This document shows positions 6,155 to 20,308 of a stretch of DNA of 29,035 nt, piece by piece. The notes beneath the pieces were generated by a model, which did no database searches, was not told the DNA's origin, and saw nothing but the letters and a program-made list of their open reading frames with translations. The position numbers were made by a program, and so were the translations under genes. The stretch is from a virus. Lineage: Duplodnaviria; Heunggongvirae; Uroviricota; Caudoviricetes. The stretch lies in the IMG/VR virus record IMGVR_UViG_2850778813_000007. One strand, 5' to 3'. How positions within the stretch are numbered: the first letter of the stretch is position 1; every line of letters starts with the position of its first letter.

Positions 6155-6189
6155 CAAAATCAATATAAACAGCCCCTCCGGAGAGGGGC
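6155..6189 (-). terminator. Terminator-like hairpin just beyond the 3' end of the AT-rich ORF
   Basis: GCCCCTC-CGGA-GAGGGGC 7-bp stem at 6172..6189; on the minus strand it is followed by a U-rich tract (CUGUUUAUAUUGAUUUU). Confidence 0.4.
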
Positions 6190-6386
6190 TGGAGAGTGGC
6201 GCTATGTGCCATTGCATGGTGCCGGGTGCCTCCCGGTGAATTCAGTACCAGCACCTGAATCTGCGATTATCCCATATACCTACTCGCTGATTGCCCCTCC
6301 GCACAGGGGGATTCACCATGCCAGTTTCTTTTAACAAACTCCCCGCAAACCAGACAACAGTCAACCGCCTGAATTGTGAGACATTT

Positions 6387-6410
6387 AAAAAAAAGCCCGC
6401 AAAAGCGAGC
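6387..6410 (-). terminator. Rho-independent terminator after the tRNA array
   Basis: Minus strand reads GCTCGC-TTTT-GCGGGC followed by eight T residues; 6-bp stem with one G-U wobble. Confidence 0.45.
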
Positions 6411-6425
6411 CAGGGAAAATAAGTG

Positions 6426-6502
6426 TGGCGCGTTCTACTGTATTCGAACCAGTGACCGATTGCTTAGAAGGCAATTGCTCTGTCCGGCTGAGCTAACAAC
6501 GC
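6426..6502 (-). tRNA. argO: tRNA-Arg (anticodon UCU), argO-like
   Basis: Manual fold: acceptor GCGTTGT, D-arm GCTC/GAGC, anticodon loop CTTCTAA, T-loop TTCGAAT, 3' GCCA encoded. One acceptor mismatch and a non-canonical 53-61 pair in my fold. Confidence 0.65.
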
Positions 6503-6518
6503 AGGATACAGATAATGA

Positions 6519-6592
6519 ACCGCCTTCGGGGACCCGAACTCCGCGCAACCAGCTTCGAAGGCTGGCGCTCTTTCCTGATGAGCTAATGGCGG
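6519..6592 (-). tRNA. argN: tRNA-Arg (anticodon UCG), argN-like; possibly imperfect
   Basis: Manual fold: D-arm TAGCTC..GAGC, anticodon stem CCAGC/GCTGG with loop CTTCGAA; acceptor and T stems each carry one mismatch and position 1 is C. Confidence 0.5.
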
Positions 6593-6602
6593 TATGTGAT
6601 AG

Positions 6603-6675
6603 TGGCCCTTGCTGGATTTGAACCAGCGACCTGGCGATTATGAGTCGCTCGCTCTCACCACTGAGCTAAAGGGCC
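6603..6675 (-). tRNA. ileZ: tRNA-Ile2 (anticodon CAU, lysidine type), ileZ/ileX-like
   Basis: Sequence GGCCCTTTAGCTCAGTGGTGAGAGCGAGCGACTCATAATCGCCAGGTCGCTGGTTCAAATCCAGCAAGGGCCA folds canonically and closely matches E. coli ileX; CCA not encoded. Confidence 0.8.
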
Positions 6676-10594: not shown

Positions 10595-10852
10595 TCACGC
10601 AGTAAACTCCTTCACCAGCGTTTCAAACTGGCTTACCTGGCCTTCCAGTTCCGCCACGCAATCCACCAGCTCATCCACCGCCTTTTGTGTACGGTGTTTT
10701 GCCTGCAGCAGATCACGAAGCGCCGGAGTAAGCTGCTTGCGGAGCGTATCTTTTGCCACGCTCGTTTTTTCCATCTGTTCAGCACAACGAAGCATCTCCT
10801 GCGCCTGCCGACGAAGTTGTTCCGGTGAAACAGTGATTGTTCTGTTGTTCAA
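10595..10852 (-). CDS. Hypothetical 85-aa helical protein
   Basis: ORF track; charged helical sequence; ATGA overlap with the helicase gene stop. Confidence 0.45.
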
Positions 10853-12250
10853 AATAAACGCTCCGTTTTACTGCCCGACATGCGGTTATTGCTGTATCTG
10901 CGCGGATTGCCCGGCGTCATGGGTGTGGAAAGAACCCGGGCACTCTCCTGGTCCACAGGCAGAAAATGTCCGTTATGAAAACGCCGGTAAATGGTCCCGA
11001 GCGTGCCATTACGCTGTTTCGTGATGTTGATTTCTGCTATGCCTCTGGCCTGAGTTTCCGGGTTGTATACCTCATCCCTGTAAAGCATCAGAATGATGTC
11101 GGCATCCGCCTCGATTTCCCCGGAGTTTTTCAGGTCCGAGTTCATTGGGCGTTTATTGGGTCTGGATTCCACGCCGCGGGAGAGCTGGCTCAGAGCAATC
11201 AGCGGAAAACCGCCGGATTTTGCCAGGCTTTTAAGTCCCTTTGAGATTTCCCCCACCGCAAGGTCGTGACGCCCCGTACTGCGGGTTTTAATCAGGCCGA
11301 GGTAATCGACCACCACCAGCGCCGTTTCCGGGTGTTTCATCCGGTGGTGCTTCGTGGTTGCACATATCTCATCAATGGGTCAGGTTTGCCTGGTCCACCA
11401 TCCAGATATTACGCCCCGTCATTCGTCCCACGCCCTGCGAGAAACGCGCCCAGTCTTCATCTTCAAAACGGGCAACAGACTTAAGACGGGATACCGGCAT
11501 TCCACCGGCAGCAGACACCATACGTTCACCAATCTGGATGTTCGCCATCTCCATGGTGAACAGAAGCACGCCATGCCCCTGCTCAGTCACCTTGTCGATG
11601 ATGTCCAGCGCAAGTTCGGTTTTCCCCATCGAAGGACGGGCGGCAATGAATACCAGGTCTCCGGGCTCCATACCGCCCGTTTTTGCGTCCAGTTCATCAA
11701 TACCGGTCATCAGCGCCCTGGATTTCTCCAGTCCCTGATTGCGGCATTCAACACGGTCGACCACTTCCAGAAGGACATCATCAATGTGAACCGGCTGAAT
11801 GACGCCCTTTCCGGTCGACAGTGAGGCCATCATGTTCTGCACATCCTTCAGGGCATCCTCGGCTGCTTCACAGGTATACGCATCACGTAAATTCTGTAAT
11901 GCTTCAGTCAGTGTTTTTTCTGCATCGCGCAGTGCGGCATTGCGCCGCAACGCTGCGACATAGTGCTCCAGTGAAGACTTCACCCAGGTTTTGCGTCCGG
12001 TGTCGGTAATCACCGGGGCAAGTTCCGGCATCTCATTGCACAGCAGTACGGGGTCAATGACGCCGGATATGCGAGCCTGTCTGCAAATCCCCGCGTAAAT
12101 ATCCCGGTACTGACGCACAAAAAATACATCCGCCGGAAGTGTGGCCAGAATATCCATCACTTCCGGATCGGCCCCACGCAGAAAAAACGCACCGATGACA
12201 GCGCCTTCCAGGTCATCGTTACGCCATGCCGGGGTGTTCTGGCTGGTCAT
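10849..12250 (-). pseudogene. DnaB-like replicative helicase, split into two ORFs by a frameshift
   Basis: N-part 11372..12250 and C-part 10849..11340 (Walker-B-like [44 protein letters not shown]) lie in different frames; removing one G from the GGG run at 11377..11379 restores ..[34 protein letters not shown]. Confidence 0.7.
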
Positions 12251-14633: not shown

Positions 14634-14824
14634 GGACGCACCTCCACCGTAGTTACGTATTTAACCGGGCTACCTTTCATTGAGATGGTTTCACACATCT
14701 CTGCCGCTTTCAGTTCCGCTGTTTTTCTGGATTTATAGCGACGGTGCCAGACAGATACATCCGTGCGAACTGATACATCGTTTCTGTATTCCGTAGTGGA
14801 GATGATGATTTCGTAACTAATCAT
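14630..14824 (-). CDS. Hypothetical 64-aa protein
   Basis: ORF track; 4-nt overlap with the Rha-like gene stop and the next gene start. Confidence 0.35.
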   Translation of the reverse strand: MISYEIIISTTEYRNDVSVRTDVSVWHRRYKSRKTAELKAAEMCETISMKGSPVKYVTTVEVRP

Positions 14825-15372
14825 GGGCGAACCTCCTTGTCAGAACCATTCAGCCTGGAATCAACAAGTGCAGCGCCAAAAACAGCATCACCAACACGGT
14901 CGTACAGTTTGCTAGCCAGCGGAGATTCAACGGCCTTAAGCATTGGATAAAGCTGGCTTGTCCAGATTTGATGGATTTCACGCAAATGCAGGTATACGCC
15001 TCTGGCGTTTCGTGCGACAGCTGACATATCAACCGCGTCAGCACCAGATAAATTCTTCTCCATCTGGTTAAAGGCGTTGATGTATGCCTCTTTGAACCGG
15101 GCTGCACGTTTGCCAGTAAAGCCCATAGCAAGGAACGCGAAGCCATCGCGGGTGATTTGATAGCAAGGTAGTTTGCGGCCTGTGCAATCGGTGTAATCAC
15201 TGGGCTGAAAATTCAGCTCAGTGAATTCAACAGAGCACTCAAGCGTCTGGATTTTTTGAATAACGTTTTTGTGCTGCTTGCAGAAATATTCGGCAACGGC
15301 CAAAGAAGAGGTAACAGCCTTCCCATGGATAACATCAATTTTAGGGTGAGTTTGGGTAGGGGTGGTTGCCAT
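14821..15372 (-). CDS. Phage regulatory protein, Rha/antirepressor-type N-terminal domain
   Basis: ORF track 14821..15669; ATG at 15372 preceded by GAGGA with 7-nt spacer; product MATTPTQTHPKIDVIHGKAVTSSLAVAEYFCKQHKNVIQKI...YQITRDGFAFLAMGFTGKRAARFKEAYINAFNQME. The in-frame upstream extension is treated as non-coding. Confidence 0.6.
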   Translation of the reverse strand: MATTPTQTHPKIDVIHGKAVTSSLAVAEYFCKQHKNVIQKIQTLECSVEFTELNFQPSDYTDCTGRKLPCYQITRDGFAFLAMGFTGKRAARFKEAYINAFNQMEKNLSGADAVDMSAVARNARGVYLHLREIHQIWTSQLYPMLKAVESPLASKLYDRVGDAVFGAALVDSRLNGSDKEVRP

Positions 15373-15535
15373 AGTGACATCCTCATGTGCGAATTTTGAA
15401 AACTCACCACATGGGACGCCAATCACAGAGGTGGTGAGACGTACAGGGTTGGCGTAACCGGTCGCACATGACCCCGGCGCATCTTTCGATGCCCCTGCAC
15501 GCCCCACCATAATTTGGATGTGAGGAAACGTGCGC

Positions 15536-15558
15536 AAAAAAACCGCTGAAGCGCGGTT
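15536..15558 (-). terminator. Rho-independent terminator downstream of the 235-aa regulator gene
   Basis: Minus strand AACCGC-GCTTCA-GCGGTT followed by TTTTT. Confidence 0.4.
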
Positions 15559-15777
15559 ATGCGCATGTGCGAATTTCAGGACGCCAATCCCGGCACCCGC
15601 TTTATAAGGTGCGGAGACAGTGTAACGTCCCGAAATTGCAGAATCAATATTTGGTCTTGAAATGATCATATAGCTGCTGATATCTTTAGAACTGTTCTTG
15701 GATGTTTCGGAGCCGTTTTATGCGAAACAGCTCCCCGTTATTGATGTTGAGTGAGCCGGGTTACTCCCGGCTTTTTT

Positions 15778-16485
15778 TCACCGCTGCCAACCAATAACCT
15801 GAAATAACCCCATTTTCGGGTGATACCAGCGAGTCCCTCGCGGTTCTGCTTCCTCCATAACCCGATAAAAAGCAGCCATAAACGGTTCCACAGCAACAAT
15901 TGCGCGACGTGGCAACAATCTGTCCGGCGTCATGAACTCATGGGTGTCTGTAGGAATTTGATAGGCGTTCACCAGATTGCGGCATTTATCATCTGACAAA
16001 CCGGTTTTTGCTTTCAGTTGGCGATATCCGGCATAGCCCTCACGAATAGTGCCCTTTTTAATTTGCTCGACTGTTTCAGCAACGTGGCTGACTTTTTCTT
16101 CCACCTGAGTGATCCGTTTCTGTTGGCGAACGGCTTCAAGAGCCATCGCGGCAACCATTTCGATTTCGCTCATTGGCTTACGGATCTGTTCTTCCAGTTC
16201 GCGCCAGCGATCTACCAGGCGAGCTGTGAATTCAGGACAGAGCTGTGCGACGACAATGATGCTGTCGCGCTTACCTCGTTCACCTTCGAATACATACGCG
16301 CTAGAAAATCGGCGAGGCCCAAGTGATTGTTTATTCTCAATTTCCACAGTCTGTGGAAATTGGATGATTCCCTTTTTAGCCAGTGTTTCAATAGTTCTCT
16401 TAACACTATCTGGTCGGCTTCCCACCAGCTCTGCGATCTCAACGCTGGTCATGGATGCTTTGCCGTTAAAAATTGCGGTGTTCAT
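15778..16485 (-). CDS. Phage regulatory protein with N-terminal HTH-type domain (Rha/ORF6N-like) and helical C-terminus
   Basis: 235-aa ORF; MTSVEIAELVGSRPDSVKRTIETLAKKGII N-terminal motif; RBS AGGAGA; ATGA overlap with the upstream Cro-like gene. Confidence 0.5.
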   Translation of the reverse strand: MNTAIFNGKASMTSVEIAELVGSRPDSVKRTIETLAKKGIIQFPQTVEIENKQSLGPRRFSSAYVFEGERGKRDSIIVVAQLCPEFTARLVDRWRELEEQIRKPMSEIEMVAAMALEAVRQQKRITQVEEKVSHVAETVEQIKKGTIREGYAGYRQLKAKTGLSDDKCRNLVNAYQIPTDTHEFMTPDRLLPRRAIVAVEPFMAAFYRVMEEAEPRGTRWYHPKMGLFQVIGWQR

Positions 16486-16709
16486 TGTTGGTCTCCTGTG
16501 GGCTTGTCATCTTCTGTATTCGCTAGCCTTGGGTGTGTATATGGAATGCTCGGATCCAGATGACAAAGAATGGCAACATCCTCCGGAACACCTCGCGTTT
16601 TCCACTTTCCAACACCTTGACTGCCACGAGGCCTTCCTTTCTTTGGGAACCTGCGACCAATAGCGGCATTGGTTTTAAATTGAATTTTTAATATTTCATA
16701 AAGGGTCAT
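16482..16709 (-). CDS. Cro-like small protein (diverged YdaS/Cro-type), first gene of the rightward early operon
   Basis: 75-aa ORF divergent from cI; C-terminal WKTRGVPEDVAILCHLDPSIPYTHP resembles the YdaS/Cro-type ..GRVP....IE..T.G.V.R.DLRPDIYP pattern, but the expected HTH segment is not evident. Confidence 0.4.
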   Translation of the reverse strand: MTLYEILKIQFKTNAAIGRRFPKKGRPRGSQGVGKWKTRGVPEDVAILCHLDPSIPYTHPRLANTEDDKPTGDQQ

Positions 16710-16820
16710 TCTTTAGTCTCACACCAGATACTTTGTTATTCAACGATGTTAACCGCGAGATTCCAAAGTATCAAGAAATTCTGTTACTTTCGTATCAACA
16801 GCCATGAGAGGAGAAGAAAA
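16710..16820. promoter_or_regulatory. Divergent promoter/operator region between the Cro-like gene and cI
   Basis: 111-bp AT-rich intergenic region between divergent starts; repeated TATCAA and GTTA motifs; operators not resolved by eye. Confidence 0.4.
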
Positions 16821-17477
16821 ATGAAGTCTTTAGGTGAACGTCTCATCAACGCACGGCAAAAAGCTGGGTTAACACAAGATGCGTTGGCTAAAAAAGCTGG
16901 GATCACCAGAGTTGCAATCAGTAAAGCCGAGCAAGGCCTTACAAAAAGTTTCAACGGTGACACCCTTTTTAAAGTTGCAGCTGCACTGCGGTGTTCACCG
17001 CAGTGGCTTCAGAACGGAGATGAAAAAGATAAGCATTGGGAAAATAATGTTAAGAGCTGCCCACAGAGAGACACAGCACACTCTTACCCTGTAATTAACT
17101 GGGTTCAGGCAGGATTATTCGCAACTTCTGGTGATGACTACAACATGTATGATCAGGATAATTGGAGGCATTCTGTAAAATACGCTGGTGAGAGGGGGTT
17201 CTGGCTGGAAGTGCACGGAGACTCAATGACTTCGCCCGTAGGAATAACATTTCCTGAAGGAATGTCGATCCTTGTCAACCCAGATAAAGAAGTTTTTTCA
17301 GGGTGTTACGTCATCGCCAGAAAAAAATCCACCAATGAAGCAACATTCAAAAAATATATTTCTGACATGGGAAAGGCGTTTCTAAAGCCCCTTAATCCAC
17401 AATATCCAATCATAGAAATGGACAATGATTGCGAAATAGTAGGTGTTGTGGTTGATGCCAGGTGGGATATTTTCTGA
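16821..17477 (+). CDS. cI: CI-type prophage repressor (HTH_XRE N-terminal domain plus S24/LexA-like autopeptidase domain)
   Basis: ORF track 16746..17477; ATG at 16821 preceded by GAGAGGAG; QKAGLTQDALAKKAGITRVAIS HTH; LEVHGDSM serine motif and a downstream Lys. Confidence 0.8.
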   Translation: MKSLGERLINARQKAGLTQDALAKKAGITRVAISKAEQGLTKSFNGDTLFKVAAALRCSPQWLQNGDEKDKHWENNVKSCPQRDTAHSYPVINWVQAGLFATSGDDYNMYDQDNWRHSVKYAGERGFWLEVHGDSMTSPVGITFPEGMSILVNPDKEVFSGCYVIARKKSTNEATFKKYISDMGKAFLKPLNPQYPIIEMDNDCEIVGVVVDARWDIF

Positions 17478-17579
17478 CCAGACACAAAACACAAAAAGAA
17501 ACCAAAGTATCAAAATCACTTGCCACACCTTGACACCTTAGTTACCATAAAACAAAGTTCGTAACTGAGGTATCATCTC

Positions 17580-18083
17580 ATGATCAATAAAGCTACAACT
17601 CTTGACTGTCTCGAAGAACTGAAAAACCTCGGCAGCCTCATTACACTAATAGCAAAAGCAACACCTGATGCTACACTCTCTAGCGATATAGAGTCATGCG
17701 CAGGACTGGCATGGGATATGACAAATAGCATATCCAGAAAGCTATCGTCAGCAATGCTTTTACAGAACAAAAATTCTGCAATCAACAACCGTCTTCGCAC
17801 CCAACGCGAAGCCTGCGGCTTAACAACCGCCGAACTCGCCAGGCTGCTCGATCTCGATGAAGAAATTATCATCCAGTGGGAGAGCGGAGAGTATGAACCA
17901 ACTATCAGTATGCTTATCCCACTGGCAAATATTCTTGGCTGCGATCCGATGTGGCTGTTAACTGGTGAGGTTACTCCTCCGGAGCAACCAAAAAGTGAGG
18001 AGCAGCAACACCATGACGCATCTCAACAAGTTTGCCCCTTATCTCGCGAAGCTCTTCTGCGGAAGAACCAATACCAATGGTGA
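17580..18083 (+). CDS. XRE-family HTH protein with an unknown 60-aa N-terminal domain
   Basis: 167-aa ORF; central HTH_XRE segment (RLRTQREACGLTTAELARLLDLDEEIIIQWESGEYEPTISMLIPLANILGCDPMWLLTG); the C-terminal 40 aa are low complexity and overlap a convergent ORF. Confidence 0.5.
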   Translation: MINKATTLDCLEELKNLGSLITLIAKATPDATLSSDIESCAGLAWDMTNSISRKLSSAMLLQNKNSAINNRLRTQREACGLTTAELARLLDLDEEIIIQWESGEYEPTISMLIPLANILGCDPMWLLTGEVTPPEQPKSEEQQHHDASQQVCPLSREALLRKNQYQW

Positions 18084-18231
18084 CATAATCGCCGCTTCGC
18101 CCTTCAAGGTACATGCGAACATTTTTATCAATCATTGCGGAAACAGTCTCAATATGAAAACACTTCTGAGACTCGCTATATAGCAGAACATATAAGTCAG
18201 CTGAGGAAGCCATGAAAAAGTTCGAAAACAT
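17971..18231 (-). CDS. Hypothetical 86-aa protein (overlaps neighbours on both sides; uncertain)
   Basis: ATG at 18231 preceded by GGAGAA with 5-nt spacer; overlaps the 3' end of the XRE ORF by 113 nt and the start of the 121-aa ORF by 20 nt. Confidence 0.3.
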   Translation of the reverse strand: MFSNFFMASSADLYVLLYSESQKCFHIETVSAMIDKNVRMYLEGRSGDYVTIGIGSSAEELREIRGKLVEMRHGVAAPHFLVAPEE

Positions 18232-18577
18232 AACTGTTCTCCATGTTGATGACTTTGATTATACAAACCCGGAACTTCTCCCGGAGGTTGTAAAGGCAAT
18301 AGATGTTGCCGATATAGTGATTAGAGAAAAGAGAATTGTCAAAAACAGGCTCGCATGCACTTCAGGAGCAATGACAGAAACAACCTCACAGCAAGATAAT
18401 TACGAAGGCATTTGTCTGGAGCCTGATTCATTTGCGGTAAATGTTTATCATTTATTGCATGCAACACAGGTATTACATATGTCCAGTAATCACGAAACGA
18501 AAACACTCGGCAGCGAAATTCTGAGTTTTGCATGTGAGTATACAAAAGCTGCTGCCGAAAAAGAATTAGCGCAATAA
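18212..18577 (+). CDS. Hypothetical 121-aa protein in the cI-proximal accessory region
   Basis: ORF track; ATG preceded by GAGGAAG with 5-nt spacer; no recognisable family. Confidence 0.4.
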   Translation: MKKFENITVLHVDDFDYTNPELLPEVVKAIDVADIVIREKRIVKNRLACTSGAMTETTSQQDNYEGICLEPDSFAVNVYHLLHATQVLHMSSNHETKTLGSEILSFACEYTKAAAEKELAQ

Positions 18578-18704
18578 CAACAAATATGCCCTGAACGTTT
18601 ATTGCGGTTTTATCGCCGGGGATTGTTACAACCTTAATCCGCAGGAGGCTTTATTGTGACTTTTATAAAGAATATGGCATCACACAAGACCGCTGGATTT
18701 GCCC

Positions 18705-19610
18705 CTATATTTCCAGACATCTGTTATCACTTAACCCATTACAAGCCCGCTGCCGCAGATATTCCCGTGGCGAGCGATAACCCAGCGCACTATGCGGATG
18801 CCATTCGTTATAATGCTCGAACGCCTCTGCAAGGTTCTTTGCTGCCGTTAACCCGTCTGGTTTGGGCATGATACTGATGTAGTCACGCTTTATCGTTTTC
18901 ACGAAGCTCTCTGCTATTCCGTTACTCTCCGGACTCCGCACCGCCGTGTTCTTCGGTTCAAGTCCCAACATCCGGGCGAACTGGCGTGTTTCATTAGCCC
19001 GGTAGCATGAACCATTATCCGTCAGCCACTCCACTGGAGACGACGGAAGATCGTTGCCGAAGCGGCGTTCCACCGCTCCCAGCATGACGTCCTGTACTGT
19101 TTCACTGTTGAAGCCGCCGGTAGTCACCGCCCAGTGCAGTGCCTCACGATCACAGCAGTCCAGCGCGAACGTGACACGCAGTCTCTCTCCGTTATCACAG
19201 CAGAACTCGAACCCGTCAGAGCACCATCGCTGATTGCTTTCTTTCACGGCCACTCTGCCTGTATGTGCCCGTTTCGATGGTGGTACAGCAGGTTTTCGCT
19301 CAAGCAACAGGGCATTCTGGCGCATGATCCGGTAAACACGTTTGGCATTGATCGCAGGCATACCATCAAGTTCTGCCTGTCTGCGAAGCAGCGCCCATAC
19401 CCGACGATAACCATACGTGGGCAGCTCTCCGATAACATGGTGTATACGGAGAAGCACATCCGTATCATCAGTGTGACGACTGCGGCGGCCATCCATCCAG
19501 TCATCGGTTCGTCTGAGAATGACGTGCAACTGCGCACGCGACACCCGGAGACAACGGCTGACTAAGCTTACTCCCCATCCCCGGGTAATAAGGGCGCGTG
19601 CGCTATCCAC
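18705..19610 (-). CDS. insD: IS2 transposase OrfB (InsD)
   Basis: 301-aa ORF matching IS2 InsD (DDE integrase-type domain). Confidence 0.9.
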
Positions 19611-19933
19611 TTTTTTGCCCGTCCATATTCAACGGCTTCTTTGAGGAGTTCATTTTCCATCGTTTTCTTGCCGAGCAGGCGCTGGAGTTCTTTAATCTGC
19701 TTCATGGCGGCAGCAAGTTCAGAGGCAGGAACAACCTGTTCTCCGGCGGCCACAGCAGTAAGACTTCCTTCCTGGTATTGCTTACGCCAGAGAAATAACT
19801 GGCTGGCTGCTACACCATGTTGCCGGGCAACGAGGGAGACCGTCATCCCCGGTTCAAAGCTCTGCTGAACAATTGCGATCTTTTCCTGTGTGGTACGCCG
19901 TCTGCGTTTCTCCGGCCCTAAGACATCAATCAT
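19568..19933 (-). CDS. insC: IS2 OrfA (InsC)
   Basis: ORF track 19568..19978; internal Met gives the 121-aa InsC ([26 protein letters not shown]...). Confidence 0.85.
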
Positions 19934-20107
19934 CTGTACTCCAATGACTAGTCTAAAAACTAGTATTAAGACTATCACTTATTTAAGTGATACTGGTTGT
20001 CTGGAGATTCAGGGGGCCAGTCTAACCGCCTGCCTTATTGCACAATACGGTGAAAATTACATGCATATTGCCTGCTTATTTCTGCGTAAAGCATACGGGA
20101 GATAATA

Positions 20108-20308
20108 ATGCATCAGAAAACAGCAGAACACGAACAAACCAGAATATTGCTGACCATCAAAAACGGGAAAGTAATATTCATTCGCCATGTTCATGACGAT
20201 GAACTTGTAGGAACTCTTTCAACATTCCTGTTTATTGCAGAAAAGGCAGGATATGACGTTATTGCACCAGCAGATGAAGATGAAGATGAAGATGAAGATG
20301 AGGAATAA
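20108..20308 (+). CDS. Hypothetical 66-aa protein with poly-acidic C-terminal tail (DEDEDEDEDEE)
   Basis: ORF track; RBS GGGAG with 6-nt spacer; first intact gene after the IS2 insertion. Confidence 0.5.
   Translation: MHQKTAEHEQTRILLTIKNGKVIFIRHVHDDELVGTLSTFLFIAEKAGYDVIAPADEDEDEDEDEE
20273..20302 (+). repeat. Hexanucleotide microsatellite (GATGAA)x4 plus GATGAG encoding the acidic tail
   Basis: Direct tandem repeat read from the sequence, in frame within the 66-aa ORF. Confidence 0.7.

Follow-up and report, generated by a model that had tools for sequence, protein, structure and literature searches.

Lysogen-expressed exclusion genes lie near the immunity region in several phages, as with lambda rexAB, P22/lambda sieB-esc and BTP1 bstA, and the first gene of the early-left operon is N in lambda, gp24 in P22 and Nun in HK022. 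Face-to-face promoters and antisense control are also familiar in temperate phages, for example 186 pR/pL and P22 sar and sas. Here we compare with these systems a segment (positions 17478-18693) of a 29,035-nucleotide stretch of DNA, IMG/VR virus record IMGVR_UViG_2850778813_000007, which we call the window and which is a phiP27-like lambdoid prophage. The segment follows the cI gene and holds three overlapping open reading frames (ORFs): L10, coding for a 167-residue XRE protein, L08, coding for a 121-residue protein, and orf86, coding for an 86-residue protein on the opposite strand. We favor, with a probability of about 0.55, the reading that the segment is the promoter-proximal end of a cI-controlled early-left operon in an N-less, phiP27/Eru-like prophage, with an antisense gene embedded in it and with the mode of action proposed below. 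The argument draws on the following features.

16710-16820, no strand: spacer between the cro-position gene and cI (oR), with CCAAAGTATCAA at 16763-16774, TACTTTCGTATCAA at 16785-16798 and a leftward promoter-like TTGATA-17-TAACAT
16821-17477, plus strand: cI-type repressor of the LexA/S24 type, 218 residues (Pfam Peptidase_S24, 4e-22; HTH_3, 2e-14)
17478-17579, plus strand: putative oL/pL, with CCAAAGTATCAA at 17502-17513, TTGCCA at 17520-17525, TACCAT at 17543-17548 and GTATCA at 17570-17575
17580-18083, plus strand: L10-like XRE regulator, 167 residues (PHROG 4739/4836; L10 of phiP27)
17580-17792, plus strand: immunity-linked N-domain of L10, residues 1-71
17793-17957, plus strand: helix-turn-helix (HTH) of L10, residues 72-126 (Pfam HTH_3, E=3.8e-11)
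residues ~133-167 of L10, plus strand: Q/S/P-rich, dispensable tail, overlapping orf86
17971-18231, minus strand: orf86, 86 residues (PHROG 6104), supported by substitution pattern, family and predicted fold
18239-18263, minus strand: predicted signals of orf86, GGAG at 18242-18239 (conserved) and TATAAT at 18263-18258
18212-18577, plus strand: L08-like protein, 121 residues (PHROG 5451; L08 of phiP27), with GAGG 5 nt before the ATG
residues ~1-50 of L08: L08N module, with the motif ADIVIxxxRIVKNR
18422-18571, plus strand: domain X, the helical hairpin of L08, residues 71-120

The likely start of cI is the ATG at 16821, and a 'LexA family protein' of the same length is annotated in relatives by PGAP, the NCBI annotation pipeline. 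The spacer between cI and L10 measures 102 bp and shares operator-like words with the spacer between the cro-position gene and cI. In the whole window the exact 12-mer CCAAAGTATCAA is found at two places only, 16763 and 17502, the second copy lying 25 bp 3' of the cI stop codon. Of the 10 plus-strand GTATCA words in the 29-kb window, 4 sit within the same two spacers, each of which is about 100 bp long. A promoter-like TTGCCA-17-TACCAT stands between the two operator-like words of the cI-L10 spacer, the second of which (GTATCA, 17570-17575) adjoins the ribosome-binding site of L10 (GAGG, 17567-17570). Among phages, phiP27 (95.8%), PhiR49_2 and ASU11 match the segment; phages carrying Shiga toxin genes of the Stx1a type match more weakly. 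Both the operator-like words and the promoter-like site are kept in an Stx1a phage despite flanks that are only ~82% identical, and they are also kept in phiP27. The layout of PhiR49_2, which has another immunity type, agrees: its cI gene is followed by a hairpin-T terminator, a TTGACA-17-TAATAT promoter, operator-like AATCAAGT words that are common to its oR, and then the L10 homologue. ASU11 carries words of the type ATAG-N6-CTAT both at oR and 3' of cI. The shared operator-like words together with the conserved promoter-like site thus suggest that L10 and L08 begin the early-left operon, and the most likely arrangement is that oL/pL lies directly 3' of cI, with L10 as the first and L08 as the second gene.

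A first, sequence-only reading of this DNA had placed the segment between cI and the early-left operon, that is, in the position of rex, and had taken it for a site of lysogen-expressed accessory genes. The placement is at odds with the operator-like words and the promoter-like site that precede L10. Lysogen expression remains a fitting prediction for orf86, which is antisense and has signals of its own, but not for L10 and L08, which likely belong to the early-left operon. If the segment were nevertheless rex- or sieB-like and expressed in the lysogen with cI from pRM, the true early-left promoter would have to lie further downstream, but 18578-18691, 3' of L08, yielded neither a promoter nor an operator repeat; the operator-like words and the conserved promoter-like site are upstream of L10; and in intact relatives L10, L08 and the later early-left genes form one co-directional run to xis and int. 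Moreover, in PhiR49_2 cI is separated from L10 by a terminator and a near-consensus promoter. In the immunity type of the window no terminator was found at that place, and because of this, read-through from pRM could lead to lysogenic expression of L10 and L08, as happens for rex. The G+C content is also lowered, as in many morons and as the sequence-only reading had judged by eye (0.428 in 17478-18693 against a window mean of 0.495, the 4th percentile among 1216-bp windows), although the dip is modest and is common to cI as well. PADLOC models do match L10, but only via the HTH; beyond this generic HTH, none of the three ORFs matched RexAB, SieB or a PADLOC defence system. On balance, we consider a rex-like arrangement unlikely.

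The three ORFs themselves, with their ribosome-binding signals and overlaps, were as the sequence-only reading had described them, and all three are conserved in related prophages. L10 has the central HTH_XRE domain that had been noted (HTH_3, residues 72-126), preceded by a domain for which there is no Pfam match (residues 1-71); it scored 43.3 bits against PF01381, for which the gathering cut-off is 23, and is thus a member of the XRE/Cro-C1 HTH family. None of the three products has a characterised homologue, and the sequence-only reading had likewise recognised no family for them. All three belong to PHROG families of unassigned function: L10 matches the profile of PHROG 4739 end to end (E=3.6e-99), L08 that of PHROG 5451 end to end (E=1.7e-83), and residues 7-86 of orf86 cover positions 1-80 of the 80 in PHROG 6104 (E=1.4e-49). 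Nor did homology turn the XRE protein into a routine repressor or an antitoxin with a known partner. The HTH of L10 (residues 68-132) aligns with the N-terminal domain of P22 C2 (E=3e-6), its best match in the PDB, and is also similar to the 434 repressor. Assignment to the DicA repressor family (NF007257) was rejected, at 49.2 bits against a cut-off of 101 and with only positions 2-83 of the 135 in the model covered, as was assignment to the cleavable LexA/cI type, since L10, unlike the neighboring cI, has no S24 match. As the sequence-only reading had found, there is also no gene like that for the lambda N antiterminator: none is annotated in near-identical prophages, and the ORFs that we tested have no match to N in PHROG or Pfam. 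The N-terminus of L10, MINKATTLDCLEELK, is free of arginine.

Among phages, the DNA coding for the HTH of L10 is near-constant, whereas everything to the left of codon 72 varies with the type of repressor. This exchange of the N-domain together with immunity was seen in E. coli and in Salmonella, where loci L006 and L007 have the C-terminal half of L10 in common and differ in both the N-domain and the repressor. Homologues of L10 with two HTHs (216-247 residues) are common, examples being P0139, P0155 and gp50 of ASU11 (L003, 3362-4075); the 230-residue P0139 occurs on >1000 contigs, including 5.5-Mb chromosomes. The tail of L10 is hypervariable, and it is absent from the L10 proteins of ASU11 and of the phiP27 type. 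The constancy of the HTH points to a target within the constant DNA on its right; a candidate operator for L10 could not be defined. We would describe L10 as an early DNA-binding regulator, probably of the conserved block. The map of the N-less phiP27/Eru-like phages would be corrected accordingly, in that the first early-left gene codes for a DNA-binding regulator and not for an antiterminator.

All three genes, L10, orf86 and L08, were shown to be under purifying selection. The orf86 gene overlaps the 3' end of L10 by 113 bp (convergent) and the 5' end of L08 by 20 bp (head-to-head). Homologues of 82-88 residues, down to 58% identity, are found in E. coli, E. albertii, Salmonella and Citrobacter. 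Pairwise ratios of nonsynonymous to synonymous changes (dN/dS) over four diverged copies from E. coli, Salmonella and Citrobacter were 0.07-0.27, the changes cluster at third codon positions when read in the frame of orf86, and stops interrupt the other frames. The third positions of orf86 are second positions in the frame of L10, so that a silent change in orf86 always alters the L10 tail. In ASU11, orf86 is intact though the L10 tail is missing. On this evidence the L10-orf86 overlap is a real minus-strand gene met by an incidental extension of L10. The ATG of orf86 and the GGAG 7 nt before it are conserved, and a TATAAT, perfect in the E. coli copies, lies 21-26 nt upstream of the ATG/GGAG, inside codons 16-18 of L08.

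An AlphaFold 2 (AF2) model of orf86, built from only 12 sequences, has a confident beta-beta-alpha-beta-alpha core (residues 14-72; mean predicted local distance difference test score, pLDDT, 79) for which no significant structural neighbor was found. Searches with orf86 gave nothing meaningful in Pfam, NCBIfam or the PDB and a single chance-level match in PADLOC (Cas11a, E=0.03). The product was also compared with the GIY-YIG nuclease core fold, but assignment to this superfamily was rejected, since a significant fold or profile match together with the catalytic Tyr/Tyr/Arg/Glu/Asn set was not found. Could the frame and its conservation nonetheless be a side effect of the L10 tail, of the L08 5' region or of an antisense RNA? 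The gene overlaps two others, is truncated in phiP27 and is not called by PGAP/RefSeq in near-identical prophages. But the selection on its own frame, its survival in ASU11 without the L10 tail, the confident fold and a family of 372 representatives, described below, make this explanation barely credible. Given the conservation, the omission of orf86 by PGAP looks wrong, as does the shortening of L08, of which PGAP/RefSeq calls only the last 68 codons in near-identical prophages (L004, 7673-7879, corresponding to 18371-18577 of the window). An internal start at Met54 of L08, as in the 68-residue call or for an Esc-like second product, was rejected, the Met and the Shine-Dalgarno sequence upstream of it not being conserved in homologues. 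Three other elements were set aside or absent: a 99-residue minus-strand ORF (17573-17872) is of low complexity, has no Pfam match and was taken as non-coding; the inverted repeat CCCGGAACTTCTCCCGG (18268-18284), which might have served as an operator or a terminator, is not kept in the copies from Salmonella and Citrobacter; and no Rfam RNA family was found in the segment.

Of the three ORFs, only orf86 looks like a lysogen-expressed moron, because it runs against a lytic operon and carries a GGAG, an ATG and a TATAAT of its own. Genes that are antisense to lytic operons and have promoters of their own are a typical form of accessory locus (PMC7067206). In phiP27, as in many genomes of E. coli, a 530-bp cassette replaces the C-terminal two-thirds of orf86, leaving a stub, and brings in another antisense ORF, coding for a 75-residue coiled coil (WP_000606214; L005, 3800-4530, and L001, 5600-6170; phiP27/BEC1). 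That an alternative antisense ORF occupies the same slot suggests that the slot behaves like a moron or cargo site.

Comparison with its homologues showed that L08 joins two modules, each of which is also found as a small protein by itself. Its length of 121 codons is retained down to about 35-45% identity (44% in database homologues), and pairwise dN/dS over codons 8-53 was 0.17-0.44 among the E. coli, Salmonella and Citrobacter copies. Searches with L08 gave nothing meaningful in Pfam, NCBIfam or PDB sequences and no match at all in PADLOC. In the AF2 model, L08 has a small beta N-domain (residues 9-45) that is predicted with low confidence; a disordered linker leads from it to a two-helix hairpin (residues 71-120), which is confident and is the domain X of our list. 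In all the variants that we compared, domain X comes after the L10 HTH, in some fused to L08N and in others as a 66-residue protein, which in an Stx1a phage stands directly 3' of L10. L08N stands alone (60-78 residues) in L092, in L111 and in L011, a metagenome-assembled genome (MAG) of Pirellula, each time head-to-head with an orf86 homologue. Domain X is in turn homologous to the N-domain of the type-2 L10 proteins (43% identity over 47 residues, BLASTP E=1e-9). Taken together, this suggests that L08 fuses a partner of orf86 with a paralogue that resembles a partner of L10.

The hairpin raises a further possibility, namely that L10 and L08 are a regulator-antagonist pair similar to SinR/SinI, with L10 as an HTH protein that carries a helical-hairpin oligomerization domain and the C-terminal part of L08 as a hairpin-only paralogue that forms heteromers with L10. 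Together they would make up another decision switch, controlling orf86 or the early-left genes, for instance, and orf86 would be no more than a regulated target. The constant place of domain X behind the L10 HTH, the paralogue at the N-terminus of type-2 L10 proteins, the confident hairpin and one member of the orf86 family (P0192) that is fused to an XRE HTH are all consistent with such a switch. For the phage in the window, however, the N-domain of L10 gave no BLASTP match to L08 and a probability of 0.3% in hhalign against the domain X alignment. We regard the switch as a minority possibility, though one that is partly compatible with the early-left operon reading.

In loci L006 and L009, from Salmonella and Citrobacter, the orf86/L08 pair is conserved together with its 20-bp overlap, and homologous orf86/L08N pairs occur in L092, L111 and L011. 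In the Pirellula sp. MAG (L011, 2742-3189) an orf86 homologue of ~32% identity stands head-to-head with a 78-residue L08N-like ORF, with the two starts 2 bp apart, a surprisingly distant occurrence of the pair that might reflect contamination or a prophage origin. These loci show orf86 and L08N to be a conserved head-to-head pair; the head-to-head pairing with L08N is limited to enterobacterial prophages and this one planctomycete MAG. The pairs also bear on another reading, in which the segment would be a toxin-antitoxin or abortive-infection module whose antitoxin or regulator is L10 and whose toxin is either orf86 or L08. XRE-HTH antitoxins are common, and L10 has weak matches to HipB, MqsA and spr1629-type models in NCBIfam and to RmrA and CapH in PADLOC. 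All of these are confined to the HTH and fall far under the family cut-offs, however, and no toxin-type domain was found in orf86 or L08. In addition, the genes lie on opposite strands and form no single operon, and in L092 the orf86/L08N pair has no L10 homologue beside it. A module of this kind strikes us as very unlikely.

A profile search among 1.84 billion representatives returned 372 relatives of orf86. Free-standing proteins of roughly 50-130 residues make up most of the 150 listed, a few being longer or multi-domain. Lengths of 60-100 residues prevail among the relatives, and they have in common the pattern [YW]V.L.[WY]S.SQ..FH[IV]E...M...N...DY..L...E. Distant representatives also map to PHROG 6104, and no Pfam or PDB relative was found for members of the family. 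Two single-protein scans of viral sequences found nothing, and a broad alignment of orf86 was too divergent for scanning loci. Across 64 metagenomic loci, one context predominates among the distant members: in at least 11 loci the orf86-like gene lies directly 3' of, and often overlaps, a DnaB_C, Toprim or primase-type gene. This position of distant relatives behind helicase and primase genes suggests a replication-linked role for orf86, the weakest step of our model.

The mechanism that we propose would operate as follows. In the lysogen, cI bound to the operator-like sites 3' of its own gene would shut the leftward promoter pL, keeping L10 and L08 off or low, and leftward transcription of orf86 would start at a promoter of its own that lies within the coding sequence of L08. 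Upon induction, rightward early transcription would cross the promoter and the 5' end of orf86, silencing it and producing L10 and L08. Because their 5' ends overlap, orf86 and L08 would be expected to have promoters that face each other and mRNAs that pair across both ribosome-binding sites, and so to be expressed in a mutually exclusive manner. The N-module of L08 would be a protein partner or antagonist of orf86, L10 would regulate the conserved block early as a DNA-binding protein, and the helical hairpin of L08 may be a SinI-like partner of L10. The most speculative step is that orf86 might act on a DnaB-family replicative helicase and so restrain the replication of the prophage or of a superinfecting relative; this step draws only on the distant relatives of orf86 directly behind phage helicase and primase genes. 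The fullest form of the proposal, in which orf86 and L08N would constitute a new two-gene system, a helicase brake in the lysogen with an early, head-to-head antidote that acts on RNA as well as on protein, from a family widely used in phage replication modules, is tentative, and we doubt that it will prove correct as a whole.

Several observations, besides the lack of a terminator between cI and L10, weigh against the early-left operon reading and its mechanism. The putative pL matches the consensus at only 9 of 12 positions, and the operator words are themselves predictions. For orf86, the promoter is a -10 hexamer with no -35, and the copies from Salmonella and Citrobacter have this hexamer in degenerate form. 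Since orf86 is truncated in the inducible phage phiP27, it must be dispensable for lytic growth. At most of the distant orf86 loci the L08N partner is missing, the helicase link is one of gene neighborhood, and orf86 in the window is not beside a helicase gene. Finally, the SinR/SinI-like logic is not demonstrated for this phage, given the low hhalign probability mentioned above.

The wider setting fits a phiP27-like prophage. In plus-strand order, the Rha-like genes and the cro-like gene (minus strand) are followed by cI, the segment, small co-directional genes, xis and int, and mlrA (= yehV) adjoins a near-identical prophage. Rha-family genes across cI define the 'Eru' type of regulatory region of Stx phages (PMC8951638), and N, CII and CIII are absent from some such Stx-type phages (PMC8044961); further papers on Stx and Eru phages treat only the opposite side of cI and not this segment. 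Among 5426 complete E. coli genomes, 331 carry the block; in 154 of the carriers the match covered at least 80% of the query, and the carriers include strains of sequence type 131 (ST131) and relatives of Stx phages. In the window, the early-left operon is interrupted 3' of L08 by the following element.

18692-20022, minus strand: insertion of the insertion sequence IS2, 1331 bp, with InsC and InsD ORFs, recognized also from uninterrupted relatives

A 5-bp target duplication (ACCGC, 18687-18691 and 20023-20027) brackets IS2, which splits a small early-left ORF with a start at 18656. The end of the segment at 18693, as chosen in the sequence-only reading, is therefore the left junction of IS2 and no natural module boundary. 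As xis and int are cut off from L10 and L08, pL-driven excision is probably impaired. The gene for a DnaB-type replicative helicase (10852-12250, minus strand) is frameshifted near 11377, with the counterparts of homologue residues 1-291 and 292-466 in different frames, and is either a pseudogene or affected by a sequencing error. With the operon split and the helicase gene frameshifted, this copy of the prophage is probably defective.

Other elements of the window were also recorded. The cro-position gene (16482-16709, minus strand; 75 residues, PHROG 4749) has no Pfam HTH match, and its product has a basic insertion, PKKGRPRGSQG, in an apparent Cro/YdaS-type helix-turn-helix. At 15427-15612 (minus strand), upstream of the ORF at 14821-15669 (minus strand), Rfam models detected a tandem of C4 antisense RNA (75 bits) and isrK (62 bits), which fall in the 5' part of a Rha/Ant-like stop-to-stop ORF of 282 residues; this part of the early-right region looks like an antisense-controlled antirepressor module of the P1/P7 immI type. 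The small RNA STnc100 (127 bits) was detected at 6161-6675 (minus strand), beside tRNA genes at 6429-6502, 6519-6592 and 6603-6675, in the late-regulatory part. A 66-residue ORF at 20108-20308 (plus strand; PHROG 340, function unassigned) has a C-terminal acidic run, DEDEDEDEDEE, and weak matches to anti-repressor families.

The families of L10, L08 and orf86 have been carried as 'unknown' since phiP27 was sequenced. The block adjoins the switch that governs prophage induction. What is new here is the reality and breadth of the antisense family, its head-to-head partner, the fusion in L08, the immunity-linked swap in L10 and the association with helicase genes. A real gene often omitted by the NCBI pipeline (orf86) and one that it truncates to 68 residues (L08) are flagged, and a phage family of 372 clusters with no Pfam model gains a testable lead, its neighborhood pointing to replicative helicases. 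Should orf86 turn out to be a lysogen-expressed replication brake with an early antidote, prophages would be shown to possess a new kind of device for self-control or exclusion; failing that, the region would be one of ordinary small early genes.

Compared with rexAB, sieB and bstA, orf86 is likewise small, adjoins the immunity region and is oriented for expression when the lytic operon is off, and the place of its conserved partner L08N in the early operon recalls, by analogy, the self-immunity logic of SieB/Esc. However, orf86 has no sequence or fold relationship to these systems and is predicted to be a soluble protein of 86 residues, not a membrane protein or a large abortive-infection protein, and L10 and L08 lie downstream of the putative pL, not between cI and pL. 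L10, as the first ORF after the putative oL/pL, occupies the same map position as N, gp24 and Nun, but it is a 167-residue XRE HTH protein, whereas N is an arginine-rich RNA-binding peptide. Its HTH aligns with P22 C2 and partly with the DicA model; in contrast to P22 C2, 434 and DicA, it has no S24 or C-terminal dimerization domain, and the HTH is central to C-terminal, behind a swappable N-domain. The analogy with SinR/SinI of Bacillus is that type-2 L10 proteins combine an XRE HTH with a hairpin and that the C-terminal part of L08 would be a small neighbor with a homologous hairpin. This likeness is one of architecture only, as the domain order is reversed and the L10 of the window has another N-domain. 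Finally, as in 186 pR/pL and P22 sar/sas, the 5' ends of orf86 and L08 overlap on opposite strands, and their transcripts would collide and pair; the difference is that here both transcripts are predicted to encode proteins, which form a conserved pair.

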